IMG/VR virus record: IMGVR_UViG_3300050821_001527
Location: 128,001-192,000 of that record
Direction: 5' to 3' (one strand)
DNA length: 64,000 bases
Source: a virus
Taxonomy: Duplodnaviria > Caudoviricetes
The translations under genes were made by a program, and so were the position numbers. Shown here piece by piece: positions 1,371-59,514 of the stretch. Below the pieces are notes generated by a model. It had not been told where the DNA came from. It searched no databases and saw nothing but the letters and a program-made list of their open reading frames with translations. Position 1 is the stretch's first letter. The number at the start of each line of letters is the position of its first letter.

Positions 1371-1460
1371 GGAAGATAAAGTAGTGAGGCAGCTACAACG
1401 CGGTGCTAACGCGATTGCCCCTCTAAAGGGGGTGGGGTTCGAGTCCTCTATCTTCCGCCA
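1371..1460 (+). tRNA. tRNA-Ser(GCT)
   Basis: GGAAGAT/ATCTTCC acceptor, GCT loop, long variable arm, TTCGAGT T-loop, G73, CCA. Confidence 0.92.
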
Positions 1461-1465
1461 AATTT

Positions 1466-1678
1466 ATGACCACTAACGAAAAAATACTAGCGACACTCGG
1501 CGAGATGCCAGCGGGCGCGAAAATCATGTATTTCGCATTTGACGGCGACACGGGAGAGCTTTTGTCTGCTGTATATTTCAACAAGACGTATTTCCTGAAT
1601 GGACGAGAGGACGTGGCCGAAAAAGCTGCCGAACGCTTGGGTTCGGAAGTCTGCTCCAAGATGCCAGAAGCTCCATAA
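1466..1678 (+). CDS. Hypothetical protein
   Basis: 70 aa ORF between tRNA and next promoter. Confidence 0.65.
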   Translation: MTTNEKILATLGEMPAGAKIMYFAFDGDTGELLSAVYFNKTYFLNGREDVAEKAAERLGSEVCSKMPEAP

Positions 1679-1683
1679 ATTTC

Positions 1684-1712
1684 TTGACTTCCCATGAAAA
1701 TTTTCATAGGAT
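1684..1712 (+). promoter_or_regulatory. sigma70-type promoter
   Basis: TTGACT-17-TAGGAT; GTG start 6 nt downstream. Confidence 0.75.
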
Positions 1713-1718
1713 AATGGG

Positions 1719-2432
1719 GTGTTAATCAAGACTTACAAGGCCAGCGATGAAGTAAAAATCGTTACGATAAACGTGACGAAATTTCCACTGGTCATAATCA
1801 CAGACAGCCATACGAACGTAGCCAACGTCCGTCAACTCAAGGAGTTGTATCCAGACAGTCCGTTCGTTAGTCTCGGAGACATTACTTTTCTCTTTGCCAA
1901 ACCGGGCGAAAAATACAACGCAAGGTCTGTCCAGTATTTCATTGACAACAAAATCCCCTGCCTCAAGGGAAACCATGAAGAACACCTTGTCTCCTGCGCG
2001 GCCTCTGATAACGGGGACAGTCTGGTGATTTTCAAGGCCATCCCGCGATTCGACGAGCATTCCAGCCTGTATGACAAATACGACCTGTCGCAGCAGCATA
2101 CGGATTATCTCAAGGGTCTGCCAATGGGCTTCAAGCTGGTTTTGCCGAATAAGGACGAGTATCTTTGCTTCCATAACCGTCCGTCCGATTTGTGGAGTTT
2201 CACAGAGGAAGCCTTTACACAAGAAGCCTTTGAAAAGACCTACCCGCTTTCGGAGCGAACCAAGTCGGTTATCATTGGCCACAATCATCGCCATTTTGTC
2301 AAGCAATATCCTTCCGGCAAGAGCCTGACGTGTATCGGCAGGTTGAGCGTTGACGGCGATTATGCGCTCTTGACCGAGCGAGGGATTGAGCAAAAAAGGC
2401 TCCCGAAGTCCTTGACTTACTTAGAAAAGTAA
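1719..2432 (+). CDS. Calcineurin-like metallophosphoesterase
   Basis: DSH, LGD, KGNHE, GHNH motifs. Confidence 0.85.
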   Translation: MLIKTYKASDEVKIVTINVTKFPLVIITDSHTNVANVRQLKELYPDSPFVSLGDITFLFAKPGEKYNARSVQYFIDNKIPCLKGNHEEHLVSCAASDNGDSLVIFKAIPRFDEHSSLYDKYDLSQQHTDYLKGLPMGFKLVLPNKDEYLCFHNRPSDLWSFTEEAFTQEAFEKTYPLSERTKSVIIGHNHRHFVKQYPSGKSLTCIGRLSVDGDYALLTERGIEQKRLPKSLTYLEK

Positions 2433-2440
2433 CGTAGTAT
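2412..2440 (+). promoter_or_regulatory. sigma70-type promoter for tRNA-like RNA
   Basis: TTGACT-17-TAGTAT, 8 nt before RNA 5' end. Confidence 0.7.
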
Positions 2441-2448
2441 CATTTTAC

Positions 2449-2526
2449 GCATCAGTATTGGCACTCTTTCCTAAAGAGGACGCGCATAATTGGACGATGT
2501 GGGTTCGACTCCCTCCTGATGCACCA
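2449..2526 (+). tRNA. Non-canonical tRNA-Arg(CCT)-like RNA lacking a D-arm
   Basis: GCATCAG/CTGATGC-A-CCA acceptor, CTCT-TTCCTAA-AGAG anticodon arm, TTCGACT T-loop; only 7 nt between acceptor and anticodon stems. Confidence 0.7.
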
Positions 2527-2532
2527 ATCTAC

Positions 2533-3006
2533 ATGAAAGAAACCATTTGCCCATCTTGCGAGAACGAGATAGACCCCGAGGTTTGTCATTGCGGAGACGC
2601 AATCAAGAATCACTCGTTTCTCAACAGTAACCACGGCCCAATCCCTATGGGATGCACCTGTGGATACGCAGAACCGCCGCCGAAGCCGCTCAAGATGTAT
2701 ATTTTGGTCAAGGCGTCCCTGCCGTCTCACAAGATGATTGTGGTCGCCCACGGGGTTCTAATGGCTCACAAAGCCTTCTCTCACCTGATGTTCGAGAACA
2801 CGAAGACCTACCACGAATGGTTGGAAAAATCCTTCCGCAAGGTGGTCTGCGAAGTGAGCGATGGAGATTTTGAAAGGTTCAAGCAGTTCGATGACAAGGT
2901 GATTGTCACCGAATCCGGCTTGGATAACATGGAAGTCGGGATGGTGTTTTGCCCCCGACAGGAATGGCCGAAAGCCTTCAAGTTCCTCTCCATGAGCAAA
3001 TACTGA
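2533..3006 (+). CDS. Peptidyl-tRNA hydrolase PTH2-like protein with N-terminal Cys/His-rich region
   Basis: KMYILVK...VAHG...SFRKVVCEV...VTESGL...FCPRQEWPKAFKFL resembles bacterial PTH2-like family; start moved to ATG 2533 after the tRNA. Confidence 0.7.
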   Translation: MKETICPSCENEIDPEVCHCGDAIKNHSFLNSNHGPIPMGCTCGYAEPPPKPLKMYILVKASLPSHKMIVVAHGVLMAHKAFSHLMFENTKTYHEWLEKSFRKVVCEVSDGDFERFKQFDDKVIVTESGLDNMEVGMVFCPRQEWPKAFKFLSMSKY

Positions 3007-3157
3007 TTTACGATAGCCGTCACACGCCCGCTGGCGGTCAATCCAGATTGCGGGCTTTAGAGTTCTCTGGAATTGTATGCCTTGTTCGTCTAAAAGTAAA
3101 GACACGTCATTGGTAATGATGAAACGACGGAGCGTTACCGTCACTCGGCTCCATTTT

Positions 3158-3364
3158 ATGAAACTCTTATCCCAAGAGGAAGCGGACGAGCAGAAAGCCC
3201 AAGAAAACTTTGAGAACCAAATCAGAGATACTTGCAGGGCGTTCTGTCGCGGTTTGCTAGACCGTCAGAAGCTCGCTGGTTATCACGGCTGGAATTTGAG
3301 CAACACAACACTCGAAACCGCTTACAGTATCGGCTGGAACTATGATTTCTCCAAGCCGTTATGA
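3158..3364 (+). CDS. Hypothetical protein
   Basis: ORF with ATGA overlap to next gene. Confidence 0.6.
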   Translation: MKLLSQEEADEQKAQENFENQIRDTCRAFCRGLLDRQKLAGYHGWNLSNTTLETAYSIGWNYDFSKPL

Positions 3365-3603
3365 AAAAACTTTGCCCGAAATGCAAGGTCGAACTGGAAT
3401 TAGTTCCGGCCTGCCCGACTGGTTGGAGCGACGAGCATCTAGCCTGTCCGAAATGCGACGGGACATTCAATCTCGGTGATGGGACGTATATGCTCATGCC
3501 CGATGACGAGTGGGAATGGCTTAAAAAAGTGAGGGCGCAATGGAAAGCTTCCGCCGAATTTGGTTGGAAGGGCACCTACGACGATGTTGATTACATCCGT
3601 TAA
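3361..3603 (+). CDS. Hypothetical Zn-ribbon protein
   Basis: CPKC ... CPKC. Confidence 0.65.
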   Translation: MKKLCPKCKVELELVPACPTGWSDEHLACPKCDGTFNLGDGTYMLMPDDEWEWLKKVRAQWKASAEFGWKGTYDDVDYIR

Positions 3604-3608
3604 AAGAC

Positions 3609-3637
3609 TTGACAATCCCTGAAAATACCCCTAATAT
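3609..3637 (+). promoter_or_regulatory. sigma70-type promoter
   Basis: TTGACA-17-TAATAT, ATG 6 nt downstream; first 18 nt identical to promoter at 11661. Confidence 0.85.
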
Positions 3638-3643
3638 CAGAAG

Positions 3644-4183
3644 ATGACAGGAATCCTTAGTAAAACTAAAGTCTATACCATCGGAGCGATGCAGTATGAG
3701 AATGGCGAAGGTTGGCGCAACAGGGTGAAGGAAGTCCTTTACCCAATGGGAGTCACGGTTTTCGACCCCTATCACAAGCCGTTCATCAACGAAGTCAAAG
3801 AGGACGAGGAAGCCCGCTCCTGCCTTAAAGAGTGGATGGAGAACGGCGAGTTCGACAAGGTGGCCGGAAGGATGAAGGCCGTTCGTCGTGATGATTTACG
3901 CTTGGTTGACTTGAGCGATTTTTTCATCGTTTACATCAACCCGACGATTGCCTCTTGGGGCAGCGCCGAGGAACTGTATTGGGCGAACCGCTTGAAGAAA
4001 CCCATCTTCATTTGCATCGAAGGCGGAAAGAAAAAGACGCCTTACTGGTTGATGGGCACAGTCCCGCACAAGTATATCTATGATGACTTGGAAGATATTT
4101 TGACAGTCCTCACCAAAATCAACGACGGTGAGAAGGTCATTGATAATGACAGATGGCGTTTGCTCAAGCCGGAATACCGATAA
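3644..4183 (+). CDS. Nucleoside 2-deoxyribosyltransferase-like protein
   Basis: VYTIGAM...WR...FDPY...DLRLVDLSD...SWGSAEE. Confidence 0.75.
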   Translation: MTGILSKTKVYTIGAMQYENGEGWRNRVKEVLYPMGVTVFDPYHKPFINEVKEDEEARSCLKEWMENGEFDKVAGRMKAVRRDDLRLVDLSDFFIVYINPTIASWGSAEELYWANRLKKPIFICIEGGKKKTPYWLMGTVPHKYIYDDLEDILTVLTKINDGEKVIDNDRWRLLKPEYR

Positions 4184-4186
4184 TTT

Positions 4187-4468
4187 ATGCCATACATTGA
4201 GAAGAAAGACCGAGAAAAACTCGATTCCGAAATCGAGGACGTTATTGACGCTCTCACCAACCACGGGTTTAAAACCGCAGTCGTGGGGGACGTGAACTAC
4301 GTTTTCTCCAAAATCATCTGGACGTTGTTCCAGAAAAACCGCAGCTACACGAACGGTAACAACCTAGTCGGGGTGCTGGAATGTGTGAAGCAAGAGTTTA
4401 TCCGCCGTCAGCTTAATCCCTACGAGAACGAGAAGATTGCTCAAAACGGGGACATTTGTGAAGCTTAA
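4187..4468 (+). CDS. Conserved phage hypothetical protein (DUF6899-like)
   Basis: MPYI..GDVNY...GVLECVKQEFIRRQLNPYENEK. Confidence 0.65.
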   Translation: MPYIEKKDREKLDSEIEDVIDALTNHGFKTAVVGDVNYVFSKIIWTLFQKNRSYTNGNNLVGVLECVKQEFIRRQLNPYENEKIAQNGDICEA

Positions 4469-4911
4469 ATGCGACAGATGTAAAAAACCCATTAAGCACC
4501 CCGGCGCGTTGGTTTTCAGTCCACCAAAGGGAAAAAACTGTCAGAAGTTCCACATTTGCGAATATTGCTGGTTTGAATTGAATCTTTGGGTTCAAGGAAT
4601 CCAATACCGCAGGATAATTTAACGCCTTTGCCTTCAGCAAGGCCACCGCTTTCGTAAAGCGGCGGAAGTCGGGGCAGCACCGACCATTGGCTCCATTTAT
4701 GTTCTGGTTCACCAAAAAGACAATATGCCCAAGCTGCATCAAGGATAAAACCGTGCCAGCCGACGCCCGACTGCAACTCTGCAAGTCCTGCGCGAAAGAC
4801 TCCGAGTATTTCGTATTCCGCCTGCCGGGAGACAAGTATATCGTCATCGTGGCTCTCAAGGCAAGGAAGCAAGCCTTTACCGTCAAGAAGGTGAATTAAA
4901 ATTCAATTTAT

Positions 4912-5022
4912 ACCCGTTCCGAATGAGAGAGACGAGAATTCCGTCTCATGGCAGAAAGGTCGCCCCTTACGAGTCATAATCTTGGCAGCGGACAGAGATG
5001 GTGCGATGCCCGTCTCCGGGGT
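4912..5022 (+). ncRNA. Candidate tRNA-like structured RNA (CAT loop)
   Basis: ACCC/GGGT ends, GAGACG/CGTCTC hairpins, GTCATAA loop; directly before tRNA-Ser(CGA). Confidence 0.35.
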
Positions 5023-5024
5023 TT

Positions 5025-5115
5025 GGATAGTCAACCAGTCAGGGCTACTGGAACCGTCTCGAAAGCGGATTGTCCCCGATGAGGGGATGGGTTTCGATTA
5101 CTCGGCTATCCGCCA
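5025..5115 (+). tRNA. tRNA-Ser(CGA)
   Basis: GGATAGT/GCTATCC, CT-CGA-AA loop, variable arm, TTCGATT, G73, CCA. Confidence 0.9.
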
Positions 5116-5118
5116 TTT

Positions 5119-5292
5119 ATGCACCCGGAAATTCGTTGCGACAAGTGCAAGCATTGGACATTAACCAAGCCAGAGGTCAAACACGGCTGGTGCAACGTGT
5201 TCCAATACCAAACTGAAGCCGGTGCGGGAGTCAGGTTGAGCAGCCCGAGAAAATTCATCCCATGTCCGTCATTCCAGAAACTAAAGTCGTAA
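5119..5292 (+). CDS. Small Cys-rich hypothetical protein (57 aa, not in ORF track)
   Basis: Manual translation MHPEIRCDKCKHW...WCN...CPSF. Confidence 0.55.
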   Translation: MHPEIRCDKCKHWTLTKPEVKHGWCNVFQYQTEAGAGVRLSSPRKFIPCPSFQKLKS

Positions 5293-5582
5293 ATATCCGT
5301 TTCGAGCCTTACGACGTTTACGTTGGCCGCGCCGGGATGGGACTGTCAGGAGAGTTTGGGAACTCGCATCCCGTGGACAAATATTGCTGGCTCTGTAAAA
5401 AGGTGCATAACCGAAAAGAGTCCATCGAGGCTTTCCGAAAAGATTTTCAGAAACAAATCCAAGACCCGGTATTTCGAGCGCGAGTATTGACGCTGAAAGG
5501 GAAAAAGCTTGGTTGTTTCTGCCACCCGGCCCCGTGTCACGCAGGCGTTTACAAAGAGTGGCTTGATAATTTGGTAGAGTAA
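5262..5582 (+). CDS. DUF4326 family protein
   Basis: DVYVGR...GN...LKGKKLGCFCHPAPCHA. Confidence 0.85.
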   Translation: MSVIPETKVVNIRFEPYDVYVGRAGMGLSGEFGNSHPVDKYCWLCKKVHNRKESIEAFRKDFQKQIQDPVFRARVLTLKGKKLGCFCHPAPCHAGVYKEWLDNLVE

Positions 5583-5666
5583 ATAATCCGGCGATTATCA
5601 CCGCCTTGAAAGCGGCTGGAACGTGCTAATACCACGTTTGGGGGTCGGCACCTCACTTTACCGCCA
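5573..5666 (+). tRNA. tRNA-Ser(TGA), atypical T-loop
   Basis: GGTAGAG/CTTTACC, CCGC-CTTGAAA-GCGG, T-loop GTCGGCA, G73, CCA; overlaps stop of upstream ORF. Confidence 0.82.
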
Positions 5667-5731
5667 ATTTGGATTACGTCCGATATATGTTACATAATGT
5701 CGCTTAACGACTCATATATAAGACGTTATCT

Positions 5732-5825
5732 GGAACAGACAAGCCGTGGAGAACGGTCTGTGATTGGAAATCACAAGGCTCGCGCTTATACCGCGAGTTC
5801 GGAGCGTAACCGAGTTGTTCCGCCA
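5732..5825 (+). tRNA. tRNA-Ser(GGA), atypical T-loop
   Basis: GGAACAG/TTGTTCC, TGTGA-TTGGAAA-TCACA, T-loop AGCGTAA, G73, CCA. Confidence 0.82.
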
Positions 5826-5829
5826 TTTT

Positions 5830-5864
5830 AGCCCTTACCCCTTGACCGGGGTAGGGGCTTTTTT
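5830..5864 (+). terminator. Rho-independent terminator
   Basis: AGCCCTTACCCC/GGGGTAGGGGCT hairpin + T tract. Confidence 0.9.
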
Positions 5865-5870
5865 ATTGCC

Positions 5871-5899
5871 TTGACACCAACAGAAAACGCGGCTATTAT
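5871..5899 (+). promoter_or_regulatory. sigma70-type promoter
   Basis: TTGACA-17-TATTAT. Confidence 0.8.
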
Positions 5900-5907
5900 T
5901 GATAATA

Positions 5908-6644: not shown

Positions 6645-6645
6645 A

Positions 6646-6861
6646 ATGCACCTATGGGAAATATATTGGTTGTGTGCCGCGCTCCTGACTTGGATGTTTG
6701 AGTTAAGGGCTTACCTTGCTGGTGAATACGGCCAGCAGAGGGATATGTTCAATATTGACTACGAGAAGGTAGGGATAATGGGTGTGTGCCTGTTCTTCTT
6801 TTGCTTGGTGTTTTGGTGGACTTTTTGGTTGGCGATGATTTTCGGTAGGATTAAGCGATGA
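6646..6861 (+). CDS. Hypothetical membrane protein
   Basis: Two hydrophobic segments. Confidence 0.6.
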   Translation: MHLWEIYWLCAALLTWMFELRAYLAGEYGQQRDMFNIDYEKVGIMGVCLFFFCLVFWWTFWLAMIFGRIKR

Positions 6862-7676
6862 AAACGAAATGGATAATTGAAAACTTCACGGATTCCGAAG
6901 ACTACCGCGAGCTTATTCAGGCGGTGAAAGATTCGGGACGCTCCTGCTTTGTCATTGATAAAAACAATCATTTTGACTTTGACCCGTCCGGGTTCGCAGA
7001 GAACGACAGGGTTATTGTCCAAGGCTCTATCCAGATGACAAAGAACATCGGAAGTCGTCTGCCCAAAGGTTGTTTTCCTGTCGCTTTTTCTTCGTGGGAG
7101 AACTATCTATGCACGTCCTATTACCCGCATTTCCGCAGATTTTTGTTCAACGATAATCATGCGGTTACGACTGTAGCCAATCTGAAAGAGGACAAGTTCT
7201 ACTTTTACAAGACATTCGGCAAGGACGCCCTTATCTTTATTCGTCCCGACAGCGGGGAAAAAAGCTTTTCTGGCCAGCTTCTCGACCTGCAAGATTTTGA
7301 TAGGTTTTGGAAGGGCGCGGTTCATGGCGGCGGAAACTGTGCCGACAATGACACTATTTTCGTTTCAACCCCCAAGAATATCAACGGGGAATGGAGATTC
7401 GTGTGCGCTCCGGGTGAGATTATCGCTTACTCGACTTATCAATACCAAGGCCAACGCACTCTTATTCCTTCCGCTCCAACCGGGGCCATTGATAAGTGCA
7501 AGGAAATTTTGGCCGTGGGCTACTATCCCGACCCGATTTTTTGCGTGGATATTTGCGAGGACGCGGACGGTAATTTCTGGCTGCTTGAACTTACGTCGTT
7601 CTCGTCTGCCGGACTATATGCTTCCGACAAAAGAAAAATTGTCGCTAAGGTCAATGAAATCGTAGAATCATTATGA
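6858..7676 (+). CDS. ATP-grasp protein (DUF4343/R2K-like)
   Basis: IFIRPDSGEKSFSG, EWRFV, VDI...LLELTSFSSAGLY. Confidence 0.8.
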   Translation: MKTKWIIENFTDSEDYRELIQAVKDSGRSCFVIDKNNHFDFDPSGFAENDRVIVQGSIQMTKNIGSRLPKGCFPVAFSSWENYLCTSYYPHFRRFLFNDNHAVTTVANLKEDKFYFYKTFGKDALIFIRPDSGEKSFSGQLLDLQDFDRFWKGAVHGGGNCADNDTIFVSTPKNINGEWRFVCAPGEIIAYSTYQYQGQRTLIPSAPTGAIDKCKEILAVGYYPDPIFCVDICEDADGNFWLLELTSFSSAGLYASDKRKIVAKVNEIVESL

Positions 7677-8394: not shown

Positions 8395-8397
8395 TCT

Positions 8398-9260: not shown

Positions 9261-9838
9261 TGAAAATCACCCCCAACAGTTTCTTCGACGGGGATTTCTA
9301 TAAGATAAATCTCAACGTTTATCTGTCGAACGGAGGCTTCAAGGATTGCCAGAAGCCCGAAGTCGCGCAAAGGCTGATAAACAAGTTGGGGCGTTTGACG
9401 TGGGGCGGATACGGGGAAAACCGCAAGGATATTTTTCAAAACAGTTATCTGGCCAAGACGGGGAACTTTTATCACTTGGGGGTTGACATTAACGTTCCAA
9501 AGGGAACGCCGGTTAAGGCTCCATTCGATTGCGAAGTCCTGCAAGCGTGGCCCGACCCCGATACCGACATTGGTTGGGGCGGAAGGGTCATCCTCAAGGC
9601 AAGCGATTGGCTACCGTTGCTTGTTCTCGGTCATTTGCACCCAAAGAAACTGCCCTTTTGCCGAGCCTACAAACAGGGAGAAGTTCTTGGGGAAGTCGGG
9701 ACATGGCCGCTCAACGGGAACACGTTTGAACATCTGCATGTCCAATGTATCAAGCATAATAAATTCGATAAATTTGACGGCTACGGAAGTCTTGCCCAGT
9801 TGAGGCACAACCCCGACCCGATGGAAGTAGATTTTTAG
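9260..9838 (+). CDS. M23 family peptidase
   Basis: HLGVD.NVPKGTPVKAP, GWGG, LGHL, HLH. Confidence 0.85.
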   Translation: MKITPNSFFDGDFYKINLNVYLSNGGFKDCQKPEVAQRLINKLGRLTWGGYGENRKDIFQNSYLAKTGNFYHLGVDINVPKGTPVKAPFDCEVLQAWPDPDTDIGWGGRVILKASDWLPLLVLGHLHPKKLPFCRAYKQGEVLGEVGTWPLNGNTFEHLHVQCIKHNKFDKFDGYGSLAQLRHNPDPMEVDF

Positions 9839-9840
9839 GC

Positions 9841-9869
9841 TTGACAACAACCGAATGATTTGATAGATT
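9841..9869 (+). promoter_or_regulatory. sigma70-type promoter for ncRNA
   Basis: TTGACA-17-TAGATT followed by non-coding structured region. Confidence 0.8.
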
Positions 9870-9872
9870 GAG

Positions 9873-10139
9873 GGTTCTGTTTTAAGAGCAAGTCCTACGC
9901 TGTGACGGGTGTAAGCCCCGGCATAGAGGACAAGTTCTCGGCTCTACAGCAGCCGTGGGAGGGAAAACCCGCTATTCACCACATGGTATGAGCAATCCTA
10001 AAGTCCCAAAGGCTAGTGCTGGCCGTAGTAAAGGGAAGGTTGGAGCAGCGACTATTAGCACGTCGCCACCGTAAGGTGAGAAAAATGTAGGACACCCGCA
10101 AGGGAACATAACCGAGGCCATTGCTCTTAAAACAGAATC
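9873..10139 (+). ncRNA. Unassigned ~265-nt structured ncRNA
   Basis: Perfect 17-bp terminal stem (9875-9891/10121-10137), GTCCTAC/GTAGGAC helix, GNRA hairpins, no ORF. Confidence 0.75.
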
Positions 10140-10175
10140 TTTGGTAGCGAGTTGGTTTTTGGTGTAATATCAGGT

Positions 10176-10787
10176 ATGAACAGTGGTATCTACTTGATAA
10201 CCAACATAATCAACGGCAAGAAATACATCGGGTCTTCGTCAAGATTGCATAGGCGTTGGCGCGAACACGTTAGAGATTTGGAGAGGGGAGTTCATCAAAA
10301 CCCCTATTTTCAAAAGGCATGGGACAAACATGGCCTTGCGAGCTTCCAATATTCCGTGCTTGAGGAATGTGATAGGACTCAACTCCTTGCGAGAGAGTCA
10401 TTTTGGATAGAAGCCCACCAGAGCTTTCAGAGGGAATTGGGATATAACCTATGCCGATTCCCTCAACATTATGCCCTTGGCCTCAAACGCCGTCCTGAAA
10501 CGATTGCCCGTATGAGCAAAGCTCTTAGCGGCCAAAACCATCCCGGTTGGGGCAAGAAGCTCCCCAAGTCTCAAGTTAAAAAAATGGCAGATGCTCAACG
10601 AGGGGTTTCTAAACCTACTTCCGGCAGCGAAAGGAAGATATTTGAATTGCTGTCGCCCGAAGGCAAACTCTTGAGAATAAAGGGATTAAGAGTATTTTGT
10701 CGTGAGCAAGACCTTAGCCCTTCCATGATTTGTCGGGTTCTCAGTGGGAAACAGGCCGTTCATAAAGGGTGGTCACTATCTTCTTAA
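10176..10787 (+). mobile_element. GIY-YIG homing endonuclease with NUMOD3-like motif
   Basis: SGIYLITNIINGKKYIGSS; RRPETIARMS...HPGWGKK; flanked by 11-bp direct repeat TCTTAAAACAG. Confidence 0.9.
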
Positions 10788-11695: not shown

Positions 11696-12331
11696 ATGAC
11701 TGATTTCTTAGACAGAAGCACCGTTTTGGTTCTGAACTCGCTCTATCAACCGATAGGGACGATTTCTCCCAAGAAGGCGCTGGTTGCCCTTAATTCGGCC
11801 TCAGACCAATGTGATATAGCCGCCAAAGCTATTGACATTCAGTATGCTGTAGGCGAAGACGGCAAGTATGACCTCGAAACCGTGGAGACGTTTACTCCAT
11901 GTTCTTTTGAGGAATGGCTGAACGTTACTGTTCGTCCGGGGCTTGACCAGATTATTCACACGTCGAAGATGCAGATTCGCTGCCCGACTGTGGTAATCAC
12001 GAACTACAGCAAGATTCCCATGCGTCGTTTCAGGGCCACGAAGTCCGTCCTTTACGAAATGCAGAAGGGCATCTGCGGTTATTCGGGCGTCAAGTGCAAC
12101 CCGAAGCAACTCAACATCGAACACAAGCTTCCGCGCAGCAAGGGCGGGAAGGACACGTTCGAGAACCTGATGCTCGTCAAGAAGGAAATCAACTTCGCTC
12201 GCGGCAACAAGCCGATGAAGGAACTTGGCCTCAAGCCGCTGTTCCGCCACCAAGAGCCGAAGCCGATTCCGGCGAGCTTCACAATCAAGACGGCTGTGCA
12301 TCCTGATTGGGGTTATTTTATTCAAAAATAA
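11696..12331 (+). CDS. HNH endonuclease family protein (McrA/HNH_5-like)
   Basis: VLVLNSLYQP...ICGYSG...NIEHKLPRSKGGKDTFENL...N..RGNK. Confidence 0.85.
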   Translation: MTDFLDRSTVLVLNSLYQPIGTISPKKALVALNSASDQCDIAAKAIDIQYAVGEDGKYDLETVETFTPCSFEEWLNVTVRPGLDQIIHTSKMQIRCPTVVITNYSKIPMRRFRATKSVLYEMQKGICGYSGVKCNPKQLNIEHKLPRSKGGKDTFENLMLVKKEINFARGNKPMKELGLKPLFRHQEPKPIPASFTIKTAVHPDWGYFIQK

Positions 12332-27296: not shown

Positions 27297-28466
27297 ATGA
27301 AAATCTACGCCGAAAACACTCGCGTCCCAATCAAGTCTTGGTGTGAAAACCCGGAAGCCGGGGCTATCAAGCAGGCCGAGAACATGGCCAACCTGCCATT
27401 CACTTTCAGACACGTCGCCCTCATGCCCGACACCCATCAAGGCTTTGGTATGCCTATCGGTGGAGTTCTGGCTACCGATAACGTCATCATTCCGAACGCT
27501 GTCGGAGTTGACATTGGGTGCGGTATGTGTTCCATCGAATCCAACATCCAAACTTGGGACAGGGAACTGTTGACGGAAGCCATCAAGGAAATCCGCTACA
27601 ACGTTCCTGTCGGATTCAGCCGCCATCTTACCGCGAAGCCTGTGGACAAGCTGCCCGCCAGCACGTCCCCGAACGCCTACTATGAGAAGTTCCTTGAGCC
27701 GTCCCTGTTCCAACTCGGAACCTTGGGCGGCGGGAATCACTTCATCGAATTACAGAAGAACCCGAACGGAAATCTGTGCGTGATGATTCACTCTGGTAGC
27801 CGCAACATCGGGAAGCAGGTTGCCGACTATTACAACAAGCTCGCCCTCGCTCTGAACCAGCGTTATTTCAGTCAGGTCACGAAGGAAACCGACTTGGCGT
27901 TCCTGCCGCTTGACTCTGCCGAGGGTCAGGCTTACTTGGCGGAAATGACTTACTGTGTCGCGTTTGCCTTGGCGAACCGCATGGAAATGATGAACGCTTG
28001 CCAGCAAGCCATCTACAAGGTTTTCAAGCCTTTGCAACAGGTCGAGTTCACGAACTTCATCAACATTCCGCACAATTATGCGAAGGTTGAAAAGCACTTC
28101 GGCAAGGAAGTCGTCGTCCACCGCAAGGGCGCGACGAATGCCAGCGAGGGCGTCATTGGGCTAATCCCCGGCTCGCAGGGCACCAAGAGCTACGTGGTGC
28201 GCGGCAAGGGTAATCGTGAGAGCTTCGAGAGTTGCTCCCACGGCGCAGGCCGCAAGATGGGCCGCATGGTCGCCAAACGCACTCTGAACATCGAAGACGA
28301 GCAACGCAAGCTGGACGAACTTGGAGTCATTCATGCCGTCCGCGCCAACTCTGACTTGGACGAGGCTCCGGGTTCCTATAAGGACATTGACGTGGTTATG
28401 AGCGAGCAAACCGACCTGATTGACGTTATCGAAGAACGCACTCCTTTGGGAGTCGTGAAGGGGTAA
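27297..28466 (+). CDS. rtcB: RNA ligase RtcB
   Basis: MPDTHQG, VGVDIGCG, GTLGGGNHF, HSGSR, HRKGA, SHGAGR, DEAPGSYK. Confidence 0.97.
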   Translation: MKIYAENTRVPIKSWCENPEAGAIKQAENMANLPFTFRHVALMPDTHQGFGMPIGGVLATDNVIIPNAVGVDIGCGMCSIESNIQTWDRELLTEAIKEIRYNVPVGFSRHLTAKPVDKLPASTSPNAYYEKFLEPSLFQLGTLGGGNHFIELQKNPNGNLCVMIHSGSRNIGKQVADYYNKLALALNQRYFSQVTKETDLAFLPLDSAEGQAYLAEMTYCVAFALANRMEMMNACQQAIYKVFKPLQQVEFTNFINIPHNYAKVEKHFGKEVVVHRKGATNASEGVIGLIPGSQGTKSYVVRGKGNRESFESCSHGAGRKMGRMVAKRTLNIEDEQRKLDELGVIHAVRANSDLDEAPGSYKDIDVVMSEQTDLIDVIEERTPLGVVKG

Positions 28467-28823: not shown

Positions 28824-29243
28824 ATGAAAATACAGCAAAAATCTCCCCCTCCCGAAAAGCGAATTCTCGACAGCGGTTCCCGCCAGCAGTTTAAAACCGG
28901 CTCAGTCCGTGACACTTCCGAGGGTAAGGGGCGATTCGATTTGCTCCCGTTTTACGCTCTTTTGAAGGTCGCGCAGCACTTTGAGGAAGGTGCGAAGAAA
29001 TACGCGGAAGACAACTGGCGCAAGGGCCAGCCCGCTTCCCGCCTGTTTGATAGCTGCCAACGTCATTTGGCGAAATACGCAATGGGGTTCGAGGACGAGC
29101 CGCATTTGACCGCTGCCGCGTGGAATCTGCTTGCGCTTATCGAAACGCTCAAGCGAGTTGAGCTTGGTCAACTTCCGGCTGAACTAAACGATTTCCCGCG
29201 TGTCAAGATGGAATTTGACACCAAAGAGGACAAGAAAATCTAA
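28824..29243 (+). CDS. dATP/dGTP diphosphohydrolase (DUF5664)
   Basis: GKGRFDLLP...GAKKYAEDNWRKG...RHL...HLTAAAWN. Confidence 0.88.
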   Translation: MKIQQKSPPPEKRILDSGSRQQFKTGSVRDTSEGKGRFDLLPFYALLKVAQHFEEGAKKYAEDNWRKGQPASRLFDSCQRHLAKYAMGFEDEPHLTAAAWNLLALIETLKRVELGQLPAELNDFPRVKMEFDTKEDKKI

Positions 29244-52361: not shown

Positions 52362-52396
52362 AGGGCGGCGGGGAGAGTTCCTCGCCGCCCTTATTT
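52362..52396 (+). terminator. Probable terminator
   Basis: AGGGCGGCG/CGCCGCCCT hairpin + TATTT. Confidence 0.75.
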
Positions 52397-52407
52397 AATT
52401 CAATTTA

Positions 52408-52797: not shown

Positions 52798-52973
52798 GAT
52801 ACGAACGCCGCTCCTATCATACGTGGTATGTCTGGACGCCCAAGGGCAGGCTCTATTGTGTCTCCACCCTCAACCGCAAGCGCATGATGAAACAGCTTAA
52901 ACGCTCTAGGAAAAACCTGCGAAAATTGGGCCATTGGGCTTGACAGGCGGGAAAAGACTGGTAGATTCATTAT

Positions 52974-53747: not shown

Positions 53748-53777
53748 CAAGGGTAGAAAACCTGCTAGGATTAGATT

Positions 53778-56111
53778 ATGGACTGGCAACCGACAATGCG
53801 ACATGCTGAAATTAACGGAGTCAAGCTTACCGAAGGACAGGCTATGACAATCCATGCCGCTTTAGTGGGTTTCTCGCAGGATTTGAGGGCCAACGGTCTT
53901 GGCGAGGACGAGCATGGAAAAACGATGACCCGTCTCTATCTCAAAAACATCCAGAGCCTTTTTGACCTTTACCTGAACAAGTAAACTATGGGTTACGAAT
54001 ACATCCAAACCACGGAAGTCAAAGGCGTTACAGCCGAGAAAGTCGCCGACGAAATCTCGAAGCTGATGCAGCTACGCTGTGTCAACAAAATCGTCGTAAA
54101 GCACGTCGGCGGTTGGATTTACGACATTTCCTGCGAGAACGAGGAACATGGAGTCACTTACTAACATGCCTAAAGTAACCAAAGAACTGATTCGCAAATT
54201 TGAAATCGGCGACCCGTTGACCGATAACGAATGCCGCGCCCTGTATGACTTTTTCGCGGAGCTACAGGATAGCCTGTCACTGATGGGTGCGGAATACCAT
54301 ATCGCTTGGGTGCCAATCATGCACAAACGAAACGCGGTGGAGGGTTATCTTCGCGCCCGCAACAAGAATGTATGAACTGGTGGAAGCAACGCCGCAATGG
54401 TCAACCGACCAAATCCAAGTCCAAAAAAGGCTCGTTCTTTAACAGCGCGAACGTTACTTGGGTTTGCCTCAAGCACGGTAAGACTTCCCGCTCCCGTTTT
54501 GGCGCGTCCTGCCCGGTCTGCCGCGAACCTATGAAGTCTATGGGCTATCGTTGGCGTGTGGGACGCAATGGGCAGCTAACCAAGCAAGAAAACTTTACAA
54601 AGTCCAAGCTAGACCGCAGAGCATCAAGAATATGAGAACATCACAACTCGAACCGGCTCTCAAAGAGTCATTCACTGAAATCGAATCGGCCACCAGCCGT
54701 AAACGCGGCAAAAAGCTTTACATGACTGTCAAGCTTAAAAAGTGGAGTCTGGACAACCATCGCCTCATGTTGAAGATTCAGGAGGCGTTGAAAAGCTACT
54801 TCCCGCGCATTTCCATGACCAGTTTCGGCGGGGAGAATGCCACGTTCCGACTTAACCCTTGACACGCCCGAAAATCCTGATAGATTAAGTATATGAAAGA
54901 CCTACTCGAAGCGTTGCAAATCATGGCGAAGTATATGGACGACGAGTATGCTCCCACCTGTTGCGAGCATGACGTGCTGTATGTCCCCACGGTTGACTAC
55001 GACAAGGTATCCGCTGCCGACAAAAAGCGTCTGGATGAATTGGGATTCATTGAAAACACGGACGGCGGGCAGGGGTTCATGTCTTATCGTTTCGGAAGTT
55101 GCTGATTTATGACTACGTTATCCAAAGCCCGCGCAGACCAAATCGCCGACGAGTGGAGTGGAGCTTATCGCGCTGATTACAATGGCCGCGAAGTTTCCGT
55201 CCAGATTATCCGCGCATTGTTCGAGGAAGGAATTAACAAGGCCGACGCGAGGGAAATCTATTTCTCGAAACACCTTCGCTGGTTCTTCGACGGACAGGGC
55301 GACAATGTGCCGGTGAAGGTCGCGGCGGAACGCTTCAAGGCGTATCTTAAACGCAACGCCAACTCCGTAAAAAGCATGTTCAAGAGCGAACTGCAACGCC
55401 CCTTGTCCGTTCAAGGACTGGGATGGAACGAGTGATTTATGAAATTCCGAGAGCTAAAGGTAGGCGACACGTTCCGATTCAGGTCGGAACATAGCCCGGA
55501 AGAAATCCGCAAGAAAGTCGCCTATCGAAAGTATGTGGACTTTCAAACTCGCACCATTTATGGTCTTGGCCCCGGCGACCCGAATTACGTGAAAAAAGCA
55601 AGGGGCGAATCGCCAGTAGTAAAAGTATGAAGCCCGGATATACGCTGGTCTATTTTGAATGTTGGACACACCCGCAGTCGGGTAGAGTCTTTCGCCAAAA
55701 GACCACAGAGCATTCTAGGTCGCTGGCAAAGTTGCAGAAACTTATCGTTTCTCGCAGGAAGCTTTACAAACAATGGAACAACGGACGCTTCATAAGGGGC
55801 ATACGTTATTTCGAGACTTTTGAGATATGTTAGACATAGCACCAAACGAATTTTTCCTCGAAGAAATTGTCTTCCTCGAAACCGTCATCAAGCGCATGGC
55901 GGGGCGAGACGTTGATTCGTGGGCAGTCTTTACCAAGGAACCGGCGAACCAAAAAGGATACGTCTGGTGGGTGAACAGATACGAGCATGGCGGGCACATC
56001 CTATCTCCCATGTGGGTGAAGGAAACCCGCAAGAAACTCGTTGGCAGGCCATTGGCTGAGTGCATTAAGCTCGCCCTGTCTTACGAGAGGTCTTACGCGG
56101 ACGGTTGGTAA
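53778..56111 (+). CDS. Run of short hypothetical ORFs (53778-53984, 54166-54375, 54372-54635, 54632-54862, 54893-55105, 55109-55435, 55439-55630, 55627-55833, 55827-56111)
   Basis: Co-directional; promoters at 53744 and 54859. Confidence 0.6.
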
Positions 56112-56126
56112 TTTAATTCAATTTAT

Positions 56127-56504
56127 ATGGAATTTCACAAGCATTGGACTTTTCAGGAGCGAAGCGTGGATTGGGCGCACAAGTGTTTCGGCCCCGTCAT
56201 CGTGAACAACACGAAGGAGCGCGGGCATCGTTTCCTTGAGGAAGCTGTAGAACTGTTCCAGTCAATCGGACGCCCCAAAGAGGAAGCTCTGGCGTTGGTG
56301 GATTATGTCTATGGTCGCCCGGTGGGTGACAGGCAGCAGGAGATTGGCGGGGTAATGGTCACGCTGGCCGTTCTCTGCGCGGCTCTAGGCGAGGACATGC
56401 ACGAACTTGGCGACACGGAACTGGGGCGAGTCATCCAGAAGATTGATAAAATCCGCGCCAACCATCAAGCAAAAATTGCAATCAGACCACCAACAGAAAT
56501 TTAA
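56127..56504 (+). CDS. Possible MazG-like all-alpha NTP pyrophosphohydrolase
   Basis: ERGHRFLEEAVEL...QEIGGVMVTL. Confidence 0.5.
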   Translation: MEFHKHWTFQERSVDWAHKCFGPVIVNNTKERGHRFLEEAVELFQSIGRPKEEALALVDYVYGRPVGDRQQEIGGVMVTLAVLCAALGEDMHELGDTELGRVIQKIDKIRANHQAKIAIRPPTEI

Positions 56505-56509
56505 CCATT

Positions 56510-56773
56510 ATGATTACTGACTCCATTGTGTCCAGTTGTGGTGGGTGGGACGAGGCCGGTGAATACGGCGACGTTCAACTCTATCAAGCCGTTCTTGCCA
56601 TTGATACCAAAAAGTTCAAAAAGGGGCAGACCGTCGAGACTATAAGCTTCGTATTCTCCAAGAGCCTGTGCCAAATTTGGGACAAGGCGGGCTGCGAAAG
56701 CGCAGATGGGTGTCAGCCTATGGAAGTAATTGAGGAATTTGCGCTCGTTCTCACGCCCGTCTTTAACCTGTAA
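56510..56773 (+). CDS. Hypothetical protein
   Basis: Co-directional ORF. Confidence 0.6.
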   Translation: MITDSIVSSCGGWDEAGEYGDVQLYQAVLAIDTKKFKKGQTVETISFVFSKSLCQIWDKAGCESADGCQPMEVIEEFALVLTPVFNL

Positions 56774-57105
56774 TGCGCGTAAAATTCCAAGTCCCCATTC
56801 ACGACGTTGCCGTGGTTGTAACAGTCACGGATAACATTCCCGCCGCCTACAAGAAAGAGTTCGGTATAGAGATAGGCGACAGTCGGATGGCGTGTCTAGG
56901 CTATCATGGCCGCAAGTTCGGATTGTTTTTCGAGCCTGCCGCCAAACGCAGACTGGAAATCGTCGCACATGAAATCTTTCACCTGACCCACCGCATTCTT
57001 GAGAAGAACTGCATGAATTTTGACGAGTTGCACCATGAGCAGGGTGCGTATCTCTGCGAATATCTGACCAAGCGAGTGCTGAAAATTCTGAACCAAAAGC
57101 AATGA
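56773..57105 (+). CDS. HExxH motif protein (putative Zn-metallopeptidase fold)
   Basis: VAHEIFHL...HEQGAY. Confidence 0.6.
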   Translation: MRVKFQVPIHDVAVVVTVTDNIPAAYKKEFGIEIGDSRMACLGYHGRKFGLFFEPAAKRRLEIVAHEIFHLTHRILEKNCMNFDELHHEQGAYLCEYLTKRVLKILNQKQ

Positions 57106-57773
57106 AACCCAAACGCATCTATCTAGTCCGTCACGGCCAGTCGGAAGGCAACGTGGATAGGGCTGTTCGCGCTCTAAAGCCCGATTACGCCCTCAAGCTT
57201 ACCGAAACGGGCATTAGGCAGGCCGATGCCGTGGGCAGGGAGCTACTGCAACAGATAGGATTGCAGCCAGTCCAGTTCTATATCTCCCCGTTCTGGCGCA
57301 CACGTCAGACCTATCAGCAAATCGTGAAGTTTTTCCCGCTCTCCAATTTTTACGAAGACCCTCGCCTTCGTGAACAGGAATGGGGTCATTTCAGGGACGA
57401 GCAGCGTGACGTGCCTTTGGAAAAGGAGCGCGACAGCTATGGACACTTCTACTATCGCCTGCCTGATGGCGAGTCGTGCGCTGATGTTTACGACAGGGTA
57501 AGCGACATGATTCAAACCATGTGGCGTGACTTTGCCAAGCCGGAATATCCGAGCGAGGTTATCGTGGTCAACCACGGCATGACCATGCGTGTGTTTCTCA
57601 TGCGCTGGCTACACTGGTCGGTGGAAGAATTTGAAATCATTGCCAACCCCGGCAACTGCGAATATCACTTGTTGGAACTGGACGAGCGCACCGACAGGTA
57701 TAAACTGGTCACAAAGCCGCGCCGTTACGAGAGTTACAATCACCCTTACCAGTTTGATTGGAAAACCGCGTGA
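57102..57773 (+). CDS. Histidine phosphatase (phosphoglycerate mutase family)
   Basis: LVRHGQSEGN, SPFWRTRQT, DPRLREQEWG, GES..DV..R, VNHG. Confidence 0.93.
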   Translation: MKPKRIYLVRHGQSEGNVDRAVRALKPDYALKLTETGIRQADAVGRELLQQIGLQPVQFYISPFWRTRQTYQQIVKFFPLSNFYEDPRLREQEWGHFRDEQRDVPLEKERDSYGHFYYRLPDGESCADVYDRVSDMIQTMWRDFAKPEYPSEVIVVNHGMTMRVFLMRWLHWSVEEFEIIANPGNCEYHLLELDERTDRYKLVTKPRRYESYNHPYQFDWKTA

Positions 57774-57962
57774 ACCAATATATTTCATTTTTAATCGCCA
57801 CCGGGGACTTACGCTGTGTCGAGCAAAGGTTTGGCAAGCGCAAGTATCAGTGGTTCCAAACAGTTAGCCCTTGGCTGGACAACGGAAGGGAATTGGATGC
57901 GTGGATGATTCCAATTCTTAATTGTGCTTGACAGACCCCGAATGCTTTGGTAGGGTTAGAAC

Positions 57963-58199
57963 ATGCAAGACGAACCAGTAATCGGGTGGCCTTTGGAAGA
58001 TGCCTTGAAATTGATTTCCGAGGCGTATGACATTTACGCTTGGCTGGACGTGAACAAAACTACCCATCGTTCCATTCGCCTGACGCCCGAAAACGCGAGA
58101 CAGTGGTGCATCGAAGTCGCCGGGGATGGATTCAAGAAAATCCCCCTGTTTCGCAACGGCACCACGATTTTTCTCGGCAGCGTCGAGGGAAGAATTTAA
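57963..58199 (+). CDS. Hypothetical protein
   Basis: ATG 6 nt after promoter 57928-57956. Confidence 0.7.
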   Translation: MQDEPVIGWPLEDALKLISEAYDIYAWLDVNKTTHRSIRLTPENARQWCIEVAGDGFKKIPLFRNGTTIFLGSVEGRI

Positions 58200-58202
58200 C
58201 CC

Positions 58203-58231
58203 TTGACAAGCGGGGAAAAGGTGTGTAGGGT
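58203..58231 (+). promoter_or_regulatory. sigma70-type promoter for non-coding region
   Basis: TTGACA-17-TAGGGT. Confidence 0.75.
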
Positions 58232-58273
58232 TAGAGTATAAGATTTTTCGTTCTTTTGACAATTATAGTCTCC

Positions 58274-58345
58274 GTGTCATTCGTCTAATGAAGGACAATC
58301 GGGCCTTGAACCCGAAAAGTATAGGACGCAATGCCTTTATGATAA
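58274..58345 (+). pseudogene. Degenerate tRNA-Gln(TTG)-like
   Basis: TGTCAT/ATGATA, GTCT..AGGAC D-arm, TCGGG-CCTTGAA-CCCGA; T-loop degenerate, no CCA. Confidence 0.55.
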
Positions 58346-58451
58346 ACGGCGGCAAGGGATTGAGTTTTGATTGTAAAACATGCCGTGCATGGCCTGTTTC
58401 TTAGTCCCGCGTTTTTTTCCTGCAAGAAACTCGTTCGGTGGGTATTGCGAT

Positions 58452-58533
58452 AGACTAAAAACCCTCCAAGGCGGCAAGTGCCCCGGTTCTGATACAGCCG
58501 AAAACTTGCATGTGGATTGCATCTACCAGTCCA
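58452..58533 (+). pseudogene. Degenerate tRNA-Ile(GAT)-like element
   Basis: CGGTT-CTGATAC-AGCCG arm, GTGG/CTAC hairpin, GACT/AGTC-CA ends. Confidence 0.35.
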
Positions 58534-58717
58534 GCTTTTAGACTTTTGTGCTACAACAATAATCCGTTAGGTTGCTGATTCGATAATATGCAAACAGTGT
58601 TAGCTCTTTGACTACAACAAAGACCGCCGTTTTATTCCTCCTAGAAAGGGTTTTGGGGCGCAATCCAAAATTACAATTTCAGTTGACAATGGTAGAAACA
58701 TTTGCTTAAATTAGACT

Positions 58718-59104
58718 ATGAAAATCAAAATCAATCGTGAATCTCTCGACGCTTTCGCTTCCCGCCTGTTCTATCTGGCGTGGCAGGCTTGTGGTGGCCC
58801 GCTTGGTATGGGTGTCTTTCAAGACCGTCCCGGTGCCTCCGAAAAGGACGTTTTCAACAATGTAATCACGGCGGGCGACTACGCCGGGGCGTTTGGTCGC
58901 GGCAAAAACGAGGTCTATGGCGACTACGTGTTTGGCCGAATGATGAAGTTCGGATTCACCATCTTGGACGATGGCGTTATCCAGTTCCGCAACACGGACT
59001 TCCGCCCCGATTATCAAGGGTTCTCGCGCAAGTATCCCACGATTGAAGCCTTGTTGAAGGCCACCGTGGAAAGCACCGGCATCCCATACGAAGTTGTGGA
59101 GTAA
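58718..59104 (+). CDS. Hypothetical protein
   Basis: 128 aa; promoter at 58683. Confidence 0.75.
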   Translation: MKIKINRESLDAFASRLFYLAWQACGGPLGMGVFQDRPGASEKDVFNNVITAGDYAGAFGRGKNEVYGDYVFGRMMKFGFTILDDGVIQFRNTDFRPDYQGFSRKYPTIEALLKATVESTGIPYEVVE

Positions 59105-59107
59105 TTT

Positions 59108-59236
59108 GGTCTGCCCCATACGCTCTGGTTAATGCGGACGGGTTAAGCGGGATGCTTCCTATCCAAAGACAGATGGCAGACAGGTTCCGCGTGTTCGCGG
59201 ACGCACCGCTAGATTGAACCAGCAAGACTAGCGGGG
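59108..59236 (+). ncRNA. Candidate structured RNA
   Basis: GTCTGCC/GGCAGAC, CCGC/GCGG, CCGCTAG/CTAGCGG stems; no ORF. Confidence 0.4.
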
Positions 59237-59240
59237 AATT

Positions 59241-59514
59241 TGACGTGTGGCGGAATGTAAAGACGCAAGGCGAAAACACGGTCTAGCTGAGTAAGTCGGG
59301 GAGAACGCTACCCGAAAGTAAACTACTGAAATGCGGCAAGTCCTGAATTGACAGGCAGCGCGAACTGACCAGAACCAACTGGTGATACCGTTGATGGCGT
59401 AAGTAGCTCCACCATCAATCTGTGTGTAAGACCAATGGCTGAAATATGCCGACAGAAAGCGCATAAGATTAGTGAGCCGATATATCCATGCAGGTTTAAA
59501 TCCTGCCACGTCAA
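59241..59514 (+). ncRNA. tRNA-shell RNA (Leu-type D-arm) with ~220-nt insert replacing the anticodon arm
   Basis: TGACGTG/CACGTCA acceptor, TGGCGGAATGTAAAGACGC D-arm, GCAGG-TTTAAAT-CCTGC T-arm. Confidence 0.7.

Follow-up and report, generated by a model that had tools for sequence, protein, structure and literature searches.

Bases 128,001-192,000 of the 202,882-bp record of an uncultured soil jumbo phage (IMG/VR IMGVR_UViG_3300050821_001527; estimated to be 91% complete), a 64,000-nt stretch that we call the window and number from its first base, carry the end of a large tRNA gene array with odd RNAs in it, scattered RNA-repair genes, and a transcribed, mostly non-coding stretch at 58.0-59.5 kb. 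We favor, with moderate confidence, the reading that these are three separate things in one phage. New among them are a family of D-arm-less tRNA-Arg-like RNAs in phages (window position 2449), a structured RNA at 4912, and another at 59105 in the highly expressed non-coding region. The original prediction for this DNA had joined six dispersed atypical tRNA-like RNAs with several RNA-repair and translation-rescue enzymes into one integrated system. The analysis establishes the genes, the RNAs, how these RNAs are conserved and covary, and how abundant RNA is in a single library; every function discussed below is inferred from these.

The DNA and RNA sequencing runs that hold sequence of this phage come from soil metagenomes. 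Megablast against deposited phages found no close relative; metagenome contigs code for proteins 40-75% identical to those of the phage, and L-numbers (L007, L010, L137, L140, L142-L146 and so on) denote the contigs that were compared with the window. Candidate RNAs were scored with Rfam and with R1, a covariance model built from 25 aligned tRNAs of the phage itself (84% paired in the structure check).

A tRNA-Arg-like RNA without a D arm

In its first 5825 bases the window covers the far end of a phage array that numbers about 55 tRNA genes, and among these lies a D-arm-less tRNA-like RNA at 2449-2526 (+). The Rfam tRNA model RF00005 gives it 26.5 bits (E 0.29 over the whole window), which is below the cut-off of 29 bits, with the D arm deleted in the match, and R1 gives it 21.2 bits. 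Its acceptor stem has 7 bp, UAUUGGC takes the position of the D arm, and the anticodon loop reads UUCCUAA (anticodon CCU, Arg). A variable region of about 20 nt with the invariant GCAUAAUUGG follows, then a T loop of the canonical UUCGA form, and the ACCA at the end is encoded. A putative sigma-70-like promoter, TTGACT-17-TAGTAT at 2414-2442 (+), which is a consensus match only, ends 6 nt upstream of the RNA 5' end.

Relatives of this RNA were collected through homologues of the downstream gene, which yielded the copy on L140, and then by pattern scans of IMG/VR, which yielded four more sequences; a genome_contigs match to the pattern was rejected as chance. There are six distinct sequences, on L140, L142 (identical in L143 and L144), L145 (two copies), L146 and the window, and these span five distinct phage contigs and about four kinds of phage. 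In their alignment 95.8% of the cells are paired and 9 of the 16 pairs are compensatory, compared with 47-55% pairing in controls with slid partners; the acceptor stem is 92.9% and the T stem 96.7% paired, with compensatory changes in both. A 7-bp acceptor stem, a UUCRA T loop, a 7-nt anticodon loop and a 3' NCCA are present in all six, and none has a D arm, there being only UAUUGGC or UAAUGGC between the acceptor and anticodon stems. The anticodon loop retains U33 and A37 throughout. Five members have the anticodon CCU (loop UUCCUAA), and in one of the L145 paralogues it is UCU (loop CUUCUAA), where the anticodon stem shows two compensatory changes. CCU and UCU alike decode the Arg AGR codons.

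From this pattern of conservation we infer a tRNA-Arg without a D arm that works or once worked, and most likely the 2449 RNA would act as the AGG (AGR) decoder of the phage. AGG is the second most used Arg codon of the phage (9.1 per 1000 codons), and no second CCU tRNA was found in the array.

On L140 the interval between the D-arm-less RNA and the next gene discussed below (L140:5850-5995) holds a second promoter and an RNA-like stretch of about 125 nt that has closing strands GCGCUG/CAGCGC and a UUCGUAA loop of Thr-CGU type, and lacks CCA.

A second conserved RNA within the array

A 113-nt RNA at 4912-5024 (+) lies directly upstream of tRNA-Ser(CGA), which it abuts, and has no CCA. An nhmmer search matched it to L137:6728-6842 (E 1.6e-6), which occupies an equivalent place among tRNAs downstream of a PTH2-like gene. 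Identity between the two is 68%, and of the 32 consensus pairs that they form, 11 are compensatory. In the shared architecture three internal helices accompany a closing stem, and a 3' hairpin has a T-loop-like motif (G)UGCGAU; this hairpin adjoins the closing stem and reads UGCGAUG here (the phage type) and UUCGAUG in L137 (the canonical T-loop motif). Neither R1 nor Rfam matches the RNA, a pattern made for it had no match in IMG/VR, and its fold z-score (-1.07) is unremarkable. The compensatory pairing argues that it is a real structured RNA with some tRNA flavor. Of the six tRNA-like RNAs of the original prediction, these two, 2449 and 4912, are conserved and covarying, and the other four have chance-level scores (below).

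A 13-nt motif, AAATTCAATTTAT, stands about 12 nt upstream of start codons and upstream of the 4912 RNA (window 4900-4912, 56115, 62910, 63920 and others), and the related AAAATTCAATAAATATC is found at about 10 intergenic sites. These motifs may be a phage-specific promoter or leader.

The PTH2-like gene downstream of the 2449 RNA

The gene at 2533-3006 (+), whose ATG is 6 nt past the 2449 RNA, encodes a zinc-ribbon-like module (residues 1-50), which is found alone as well, followed by a domain of about 100 residues (53-157) with 802 relatives. The peptidyl-tRNA hydrolase 2 family PF01981 scores the window protein at 20.1 bits, below its cut-off of 23, and matches 37 of 48 members of the protein's own family (best E 1.1e-7). 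An AlphaFold2 model has a pLDDT of 82 overall and above 90 over the domain, and in a Foldseek search of the PDB ranks 1-13 are all Pth2/Bit1-family chains at probability 1.00 (rank 14, at 0.95, is an NMR model of the same AF2095), with target-normalized TM-scores of 0.6-0.69 and sequence identities of 13-19%. H73, E127 and P141 are invariant in the family. The protein thus holds up as PTH2-like at the level of its modeled fold, as had been proposed, with its own Pfam score below the cut-off. Most likely such an enzyme would recycle peptidyl- or N-acyl-aminoacyl-tRNA.

PTH2-like genes lie within tRNA arrays of this kind in L137 and L140 too. The distance from the RNA to this gene is 6 nt here, 160 nt in L140 and 6 kb in L144, and L137 has the gene with no 2449-type RNA found within 12 kb, so the linkage is loose. 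In L142, L145 and L146 an ATG follows the 2449-type RNA after 4-14 nt; it opens a 67-88-aa zinc-ribbon ORF in L145 and L146 and a frame of only 15 codons in L142. Five other contigs found through the PTH2-like N-terminus (L002-L006) were set aside: they match over a short N-terminal stretch only (36-56% over 41-89 residues) and have no tRNA.

The transcribed non-coding region and the 59105 RNA

From 58.0 to 59.6 kb the window is mostly non-coding. A stretch at 58200-58717 (+), which is abundant in metatranscriptome X4, is followed by a gene for a conserved 128-aa protein at 58718-59104 (+; 141 homologues), a conserved structured RNA at 59105-59235 (+), and a further stretch at 59236-59613 (+) that R1 and Rfam do not match and in which the abundant RNA contig stops at 59476. 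There is no convincing ORF in 58200-58717 or 59105-59613. The depths of assembled metatranscriptome contigs, which are only indicative of RNA abundance, are 88.7 for the X4 contig at 58001-58655 and 31.1 for that at 58700-59476, compared with 3-6 for other phage contigs and a flat DNA depth of about 8; RNA of the 58.0-59.5 kb stretch is 5-30 times more abundant than that of neighboring genes in this one soil metatranscriptome. In a second library, X3, the ratio goes the other way, an argument against carry-over of DNA. At 59476, upstream of a supposed 'T arm', the second X4 contig continues as adapter sequence, a hint of a discrete RNA end. Parts of the window have no RNA contig cover in X3 and X4.

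The 59105 RNA, which the original prediction had passed over, has a homologue at L007:18945-19120, with which it shares 26 consensus pairs, 7 of them compensatory (5 of these in one helix). A 7-bp helix closes it, and the 17 nt in the loop of its 3' hairpin, GAUUGAACCAGCAAGAC, are invariant; AACCAG within this loop could base-pair with a CUGGUU farther upstream, and the RNA is probably pseudoknotted. Rfam has no match for it. The genes downstream of it differ in the two phages, and therefore a free-standing RNA is likelier than a gene-specific leader. It is not tRNA-like, and our guess is that it would act in trans as a small RNA.

Other searches in this region led nowhere. A 14-mer scan for the 59105 loop gave 117 matches, all chance, and a two-anchor pattern gave only chance matches in coding sequence (IMG/VR, JGI metagenomes and Latescibacterota genomes). 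The non-coding stretches have no meaningful tblastn match that would make them pseudogenes of the relatives' proteins. That 59105-59613 is a decayed gene for a CCA-adding enzyme was ruled out, as the phage copy of this gene sits elsewhere in the genome, at 9435-10115 (-) of the record, about 177 kb from the 128-aa gene; in two relatives a CCA-adding-enzyme (PolyA_pol) gene follows the 128-aa gene (L014:4427-5122 and L015:3231-3926). At 58349-58377 a weak resemblance to a CRISPR repeat (16 bits, E 1.9) was put down to chance.

The interval 58706-59119 is open on both strands (128 aa on the plus and 137 aa on the minus strand), and the homologues back the plus-strand protein. Directly upstream of the 59105 homologue, L007:18838-18945 holds a stretch closed by the 8-bp stem GGUUAGUG/CACUAACU, after a promoter-like site. 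Many promoter-like sites are seen in the window (TTGACA, 16-17 nt, then TAGGGT or TAGATT, often with TG before it; 57929-57957, 58203-58233, and at 52940, 53744 and 54859), and by these matches the region looks like an early one under host sigma-70.

The remaining proposed tRNA mimics

The sequences at 45423, 46951, 58274/58452 and 59241, which had been put forward as further tRNA mimics, belong to leaders or intergenic sequence and resemble tRNAs no more than expected by chance. The first, at 45423-45558 (+), is a promoter-proximal 136-nt leader (fold z-score -1.74; R1 7.9 bits, E 5) with a promoter-like site before it, ACCA at its end and the ATG of the next ORF 5 nt on; in the syntenic L007 and L010 it was not found after the HAD phosphatase gene described below. 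The second, at 46951-47131 (+), forms the 5' leader, rich in hairpins, of a gene for an HNH endonuclease (Rfam tRNA 16.6 bits, E 4.5; R1 9 bits, E 2.5). Its tRNA likeness is limited to the 5' half, that is, the first ~40 nt (acceptor strand and D arm), and its 'anticodon arm' is a palindromic AAGCUU hairpin. The gene itself, 47086/47132-47769, belongs to HNH PHROG families, and an RNA contig at 46726-47141 overlaps the leader. That 46951 is a split or intron-bearing tRNA was rejected: no group I intron model in Rfam matched (E up to 5), and no complementary 3' acceptor strand lies nearby. Neither Rfam tRNA nor R1 matches 58274, 58452 or 59241. The underlying shape (up to 400 nt enclosed by a 7-bp stem, next to a hairpin of 5 bp and a 7-nt loop) was counted 55 times in the window, against about 46 in shuffled sequence; as the shape is at chance frequency and no model matches, the 'giant tRNA' at 59241-59514 is unsupported.

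The 45423 leader has the same layout as the 2449 RNA, namely a promoter, an RNA ending in ACCA and an ATG 5-6 nt on, and this layout is what would be expected if the elements served as tRNA punctuation, at which RNase P and RNase Z/E cut and so free the mRNAs of small genes, with decoding secondary or absent for 2449, 4912 and 45423. The ATGs that follow the 2449-type RNA closely in L142, L145 and L146 fit such a role, as does the 4912 RNA, which lacks CCA and abuts a tRNA. A cutting signal would have no need, however, of an invariant anticodon arm, or of an Arg-to-Arg switch from CCU to UCU with compensatory stem changes, and we consider punctuation an unlikely account of these RNAs.

RNA-repair genes and the question of one system

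RtcB RNA ligase, one of the enzymes originally named, is indeed encoded, at 27297-28466 (+; phrog_1075, E 3.6e-113, full-length over residues 6-389), among genes for thymidylate synthase, dUTPase, dCMP deaminase and a DHH phosphoesterase. The proposed HAD phosphatase is likewise present, as a HAD_SAK_2 gene at 44728-45399 (+; PF18143 90.5 bits against a cut-off of 27.5, profile 1-139 of 139) that follows rIIB; the 45423 RNA beside it is not tRNA-like above chance. Its true start is probably near 44854, judging from the database form, which is 181 aa. The cyclic-phosphate receiver-like protein could not be recognized in the sequence: the nearest candidates are a nucleoside 2-deoxyribosyltransferase-like gene at 3644-4183 (below cut-off) and a possible calcineurin-like metallophosphoesterase at 1719-2432 (+; PF12850, E 0.002, 18.6 bits against a cut-off of 27). 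No TROVE/Ro60 gene (PF05731) and no Rnl2 were found in the genome, and an Rnl1 search of the genome gave no match, as did its control. Searches for related loci with the HAD protein and with a 559-aa protein found none. RtcB and HAD_SAK_2 are most likely the usual jumbo-phage genes for healing and sealing RNA ends, unlinked to the RNAs. A protein with a dATP/dGTP diphosphohydrolase N-terminal domain adjoins RtcB (window 28824-29243) and hints at modified-base DNA metabolism.

The single counter-defence system of the original prediction, in which six dispersed mimics are nuclease-resistant substitutes or decoys acting with RtcB, HAD and PTH2, has in its favor that each of these enzyme classes is present, that the PTH2-like gene follows the 2449 RNA directly here and after 160 nt in L140, and that phage tRNAs are known to evade anticodon nucleases (PMC10264068); a missing D arm could plausibly evade a nuclease or modification enzyme that reads this arm. 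Against it, four of the six RNAs are not tRNA-like above chance, so that two real RNAs are left, both inside the array. The system's genes are 17-43 kb apart (some 21 kb separate RtcB from the array, and 17 kb from the HAD gene), no Ro/TROVE partner was found in the genome, and the PTH2-like gene lies 6 kb from the RNA in L144 and has no such RNA within 12 kb in L137. Co-occurrence, which had been suggested as the check, was found in part: on five IMG/VR contigs with a 2449-type RNA, which are 6-75% complete so that absence from them is weak evidence, RtcB and HAD_SAK_2 were found on none, and the PTH2-like gene on three, all of one phage type, with L140 in addition. We therefore find the single system unsupported and quite improbable. 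That phage tRNAs and RNA repair serve against host attack on tRNA holds in general, in the sense already known (PMC7824862, PMC10264068); jumbo phages that combine tRNAs with RtcB, end-healing enzymes and tRNA-like partners have been described (PMC7824862), and as this combination is textbook for jumbo phages an 'integrated system' would add little.

The weakest reading, that the RNAs are decaying tRNA pseudogenes or functionless chance shapes, suits 45423, 46951, 58274/58452 and 59241, which have no significant score, no homologue in syntenic relatives and a chance shape (46951 may be what remains of a tRNA next to a homing HNH endonuclease), but covariation excludes it for 2449 and 4912, it leaves the conserved 59105 RNA unexplained and sits poorly with the abundance of 58.0-59.5 kb as RNA, and we give it very little credence overall.

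What the D-arm-less RNA may mean

A joint reading that we advance tentatively is that a lineage of large phages of soil and fresh water uses a working D-arm-less tRNA-Arg in which the UUGG variable region would take the elbow contact, and that this would be the first non-cloverleaf decoder known outside organelles. It might allow escape from a host enzyme that recognizes the D arm of tRNA-Arg, it would often be accompanied by the PTH2-fold hydrolase, and at least two further new structured RNAs (4912-5024 and 59105-59235) would be present at high level. Several considerations weigh against our interpretation. ArgRS normally requires A20 of the D loop, which is absent from the 2449 RNA; the array contains a normal tRNA-Arg(UCU) that could decode AGG by wobble; and the charging and ribosomal use of the 2449 RNA are putative. 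The conservation of the 4912 RNA and that of the 59105 RNA are each based on one relative, the relatives in the co-occurrence comparison are fragments, and the X4 depths come from assembled contigs, beyond whose reach are transcript ends, strand and true levels. Finally, the layout that 45423 shares with the 2449 RNA leaves room for it to be a processed RNA.

According to a 2024 paper, every bacterial tRNA known is a cloverleaf (PMC11551756), and a D-arm-less tRNA-Arg look-alike in phages would challenge that claim for tRNAs of bacterial systems. Such an RNA would also be a natural test case of how ArgRS, EF-Tu, the ribosome and anticodon nucleases deal with the loss of an arm. New candidates for regulatory phage RNAs are the 4912 RNA, the 59105 RNA and the very abundant non-coding transcript.

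The tRNA array and other features of the window

Relaxed ARAGORN runs on the whole genome place the tRNA cluster at about 116.8 to 133.8 kb, with a tmRNA in addition, and R1 finds about 50 tRNAs within the 20 kb preceding the window; 19 amino acids are covered. Inside the window R1 finds seven tRNA-type genes, namely those for all four Ser isoacceptors, two Thr and the 2449 RNA, and Rfam at its gathering threshold has no match there. Small genes, the PTH2-like one among them, are interspersed with these RNAs. ARAGORN at its default finds a single tRNA in the window, tRNA-Ser(GCU) at 1371-1460 (+; canonical T loop, CCA encoded), and finds the other three Ser genes only at relaxed thresholds: tRNA-Ser(CGA) at 5025-5115 (+; -ps), tRNA-Ser(UGA) at 5573-5666 (+; -ps90, R1 18.6 bits) and tRNA-Ser(GGA) at 5732-5825 (+; -ps, R1 23.3 bits over the 3' part). 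The four Ser tRNAs of the original prediction are thus confirmed, as the last members of a near-complete tRNA set. Two Thr genes had been missed: tRNA-Thr(GGU) at 3079-3153 (+; R1 50.9 bits, E 1e-14, also ARAGORN -ps90; phage-type T loop AGCGUUA) and tRNA-Thr(CGU) at 4624-4695 (+; R1 20.4 bits, E 5e-5), which has a miniature D arm.

The T loops in the 25-tRNA alignment are GGUGCGA, GGAGCGU or GGCGCGA rather than GGUUCGA, and the D loops are AAAAGUA; because of these altered loops the standard tRNA tools fail. That standard finders overlook most of the array bears on the annotation of uncultured phages in general. Most likely the array would free the phage from the host tRNA pool, either by supplying codons or when the host cuts its own tRNAs.

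Further peculiarities of the array were noted. T-loop position 55 is G and the D loop has AG in place of GG in most array tRNAs (L011:8600-19100 and window 1-5825), the UUC T loop being confined to a few members, among them Ser-GCU and the D-arm-less RNA. Thr(GGU) and Thr(CGU) share a 5' GCCUU, and in both the acceptor pairs 4-69 and 5-68 are mismatched; the three Thr tRNAs (GGU, CGU and, upstream of the window at L011:18345-18416, UGU) all terminate in GGCUCCA, and Thr-CGU and Thr-UGU both have a miniature D arm and identical T arms. Array members of 83-116 nt with a replaced middle, in which the tRNA model recognizes no more than the acceptor stem and the T arm, lie at L011:11494-11576, 10322-10437 and 1007-1122, and one of them is directly 3' of the tmRNA.

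Immediately before tRNA-Ser(GCU), window 11-1357 encodes a 448-aa protein with sulfotransferase and glycosyltransferase-like domains. An R2K-clade ATP-grasp protein is encoded at 6858-7676 (+; PF18299 39.6 bits), and by tblastn a 73%-identical copy stands about 2 kb from the 2449-type RNA in relatives (L142-L144). The window has one GIY-YIG and two HNH genes of homing-endonuclease type (10152-10787, 11696-12331 and 47086-47769), and the syntenic region of L007 holds an IS605-type TnpB gene.

Comparison with known systems

With the tRNA and repair sets of jumbo phages (Iyer et al. 2021, PMC7824862), and with the Pnkp/Rnl1 pair that T4 sets against PrrC, this phage has in common many tRNAs, RtcB and an end-healing phosphatase. 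The accepted role of such sets is to sustain translation while the host attacks its own tRNAs (PMC7824862). The phage differs from them in having about 55 tRNAs, compared with group means of 4.5-22 (PMC7824862), in its altered T and D loops, and in repair genes that are scattered and not operonic; Rnl2 and Ro/TROVE were not found in it, and Rnl1 was unmatched there like its control.

The 2449 RNA resembles the D-arm-less tRNAs of animal mitochondria (mt-tRNA-Ser(AGY) and the minimal tRNAs of nematodes and mites; PMC6158502, PMC10412605) in keeping the acceptor, anticodon and T arms with a short loop for the D arm. Unlike those, it is phage-borne; its variable region is long, conserved and contains UUGG, its T loop is canonical, its CCA is encoded, and its anticodon is one for Arg (AGR). 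YrlA, the bacterial Y RNA that goes with Ro60 (RF02553), is also a tRNA-like non-coding RNA linked to RNA repair and is known from some phages, but Rfam has no match to it in the window, the genome has no TROVE gene, and the 2449 RNA is unpermuted, with an anticodon loop.

Archaeal and eukaryotic peptidyl-tRNA hydrolase 2 (PF01981; PDB 3erj, 1xty and 1q7s) shares with the product of the 2533-3006 gene the fold of residues 53-157 and the family-level Pfam matches; the phage protein differs in its low identity (13-19%), its score below the Pfam cut-off and its extra N-terminal zinc ribbon. The tRNA cluster of phage T4 reportedly gives rise to two stable small RNAs, species 1 and 2 (rnaC and rnaD). 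Like these, the 4912 element is a non-tRNA structured RNA embedded in a phage tRNA cluster, and the T4 RNAs are said to share precursors with tRNAs.

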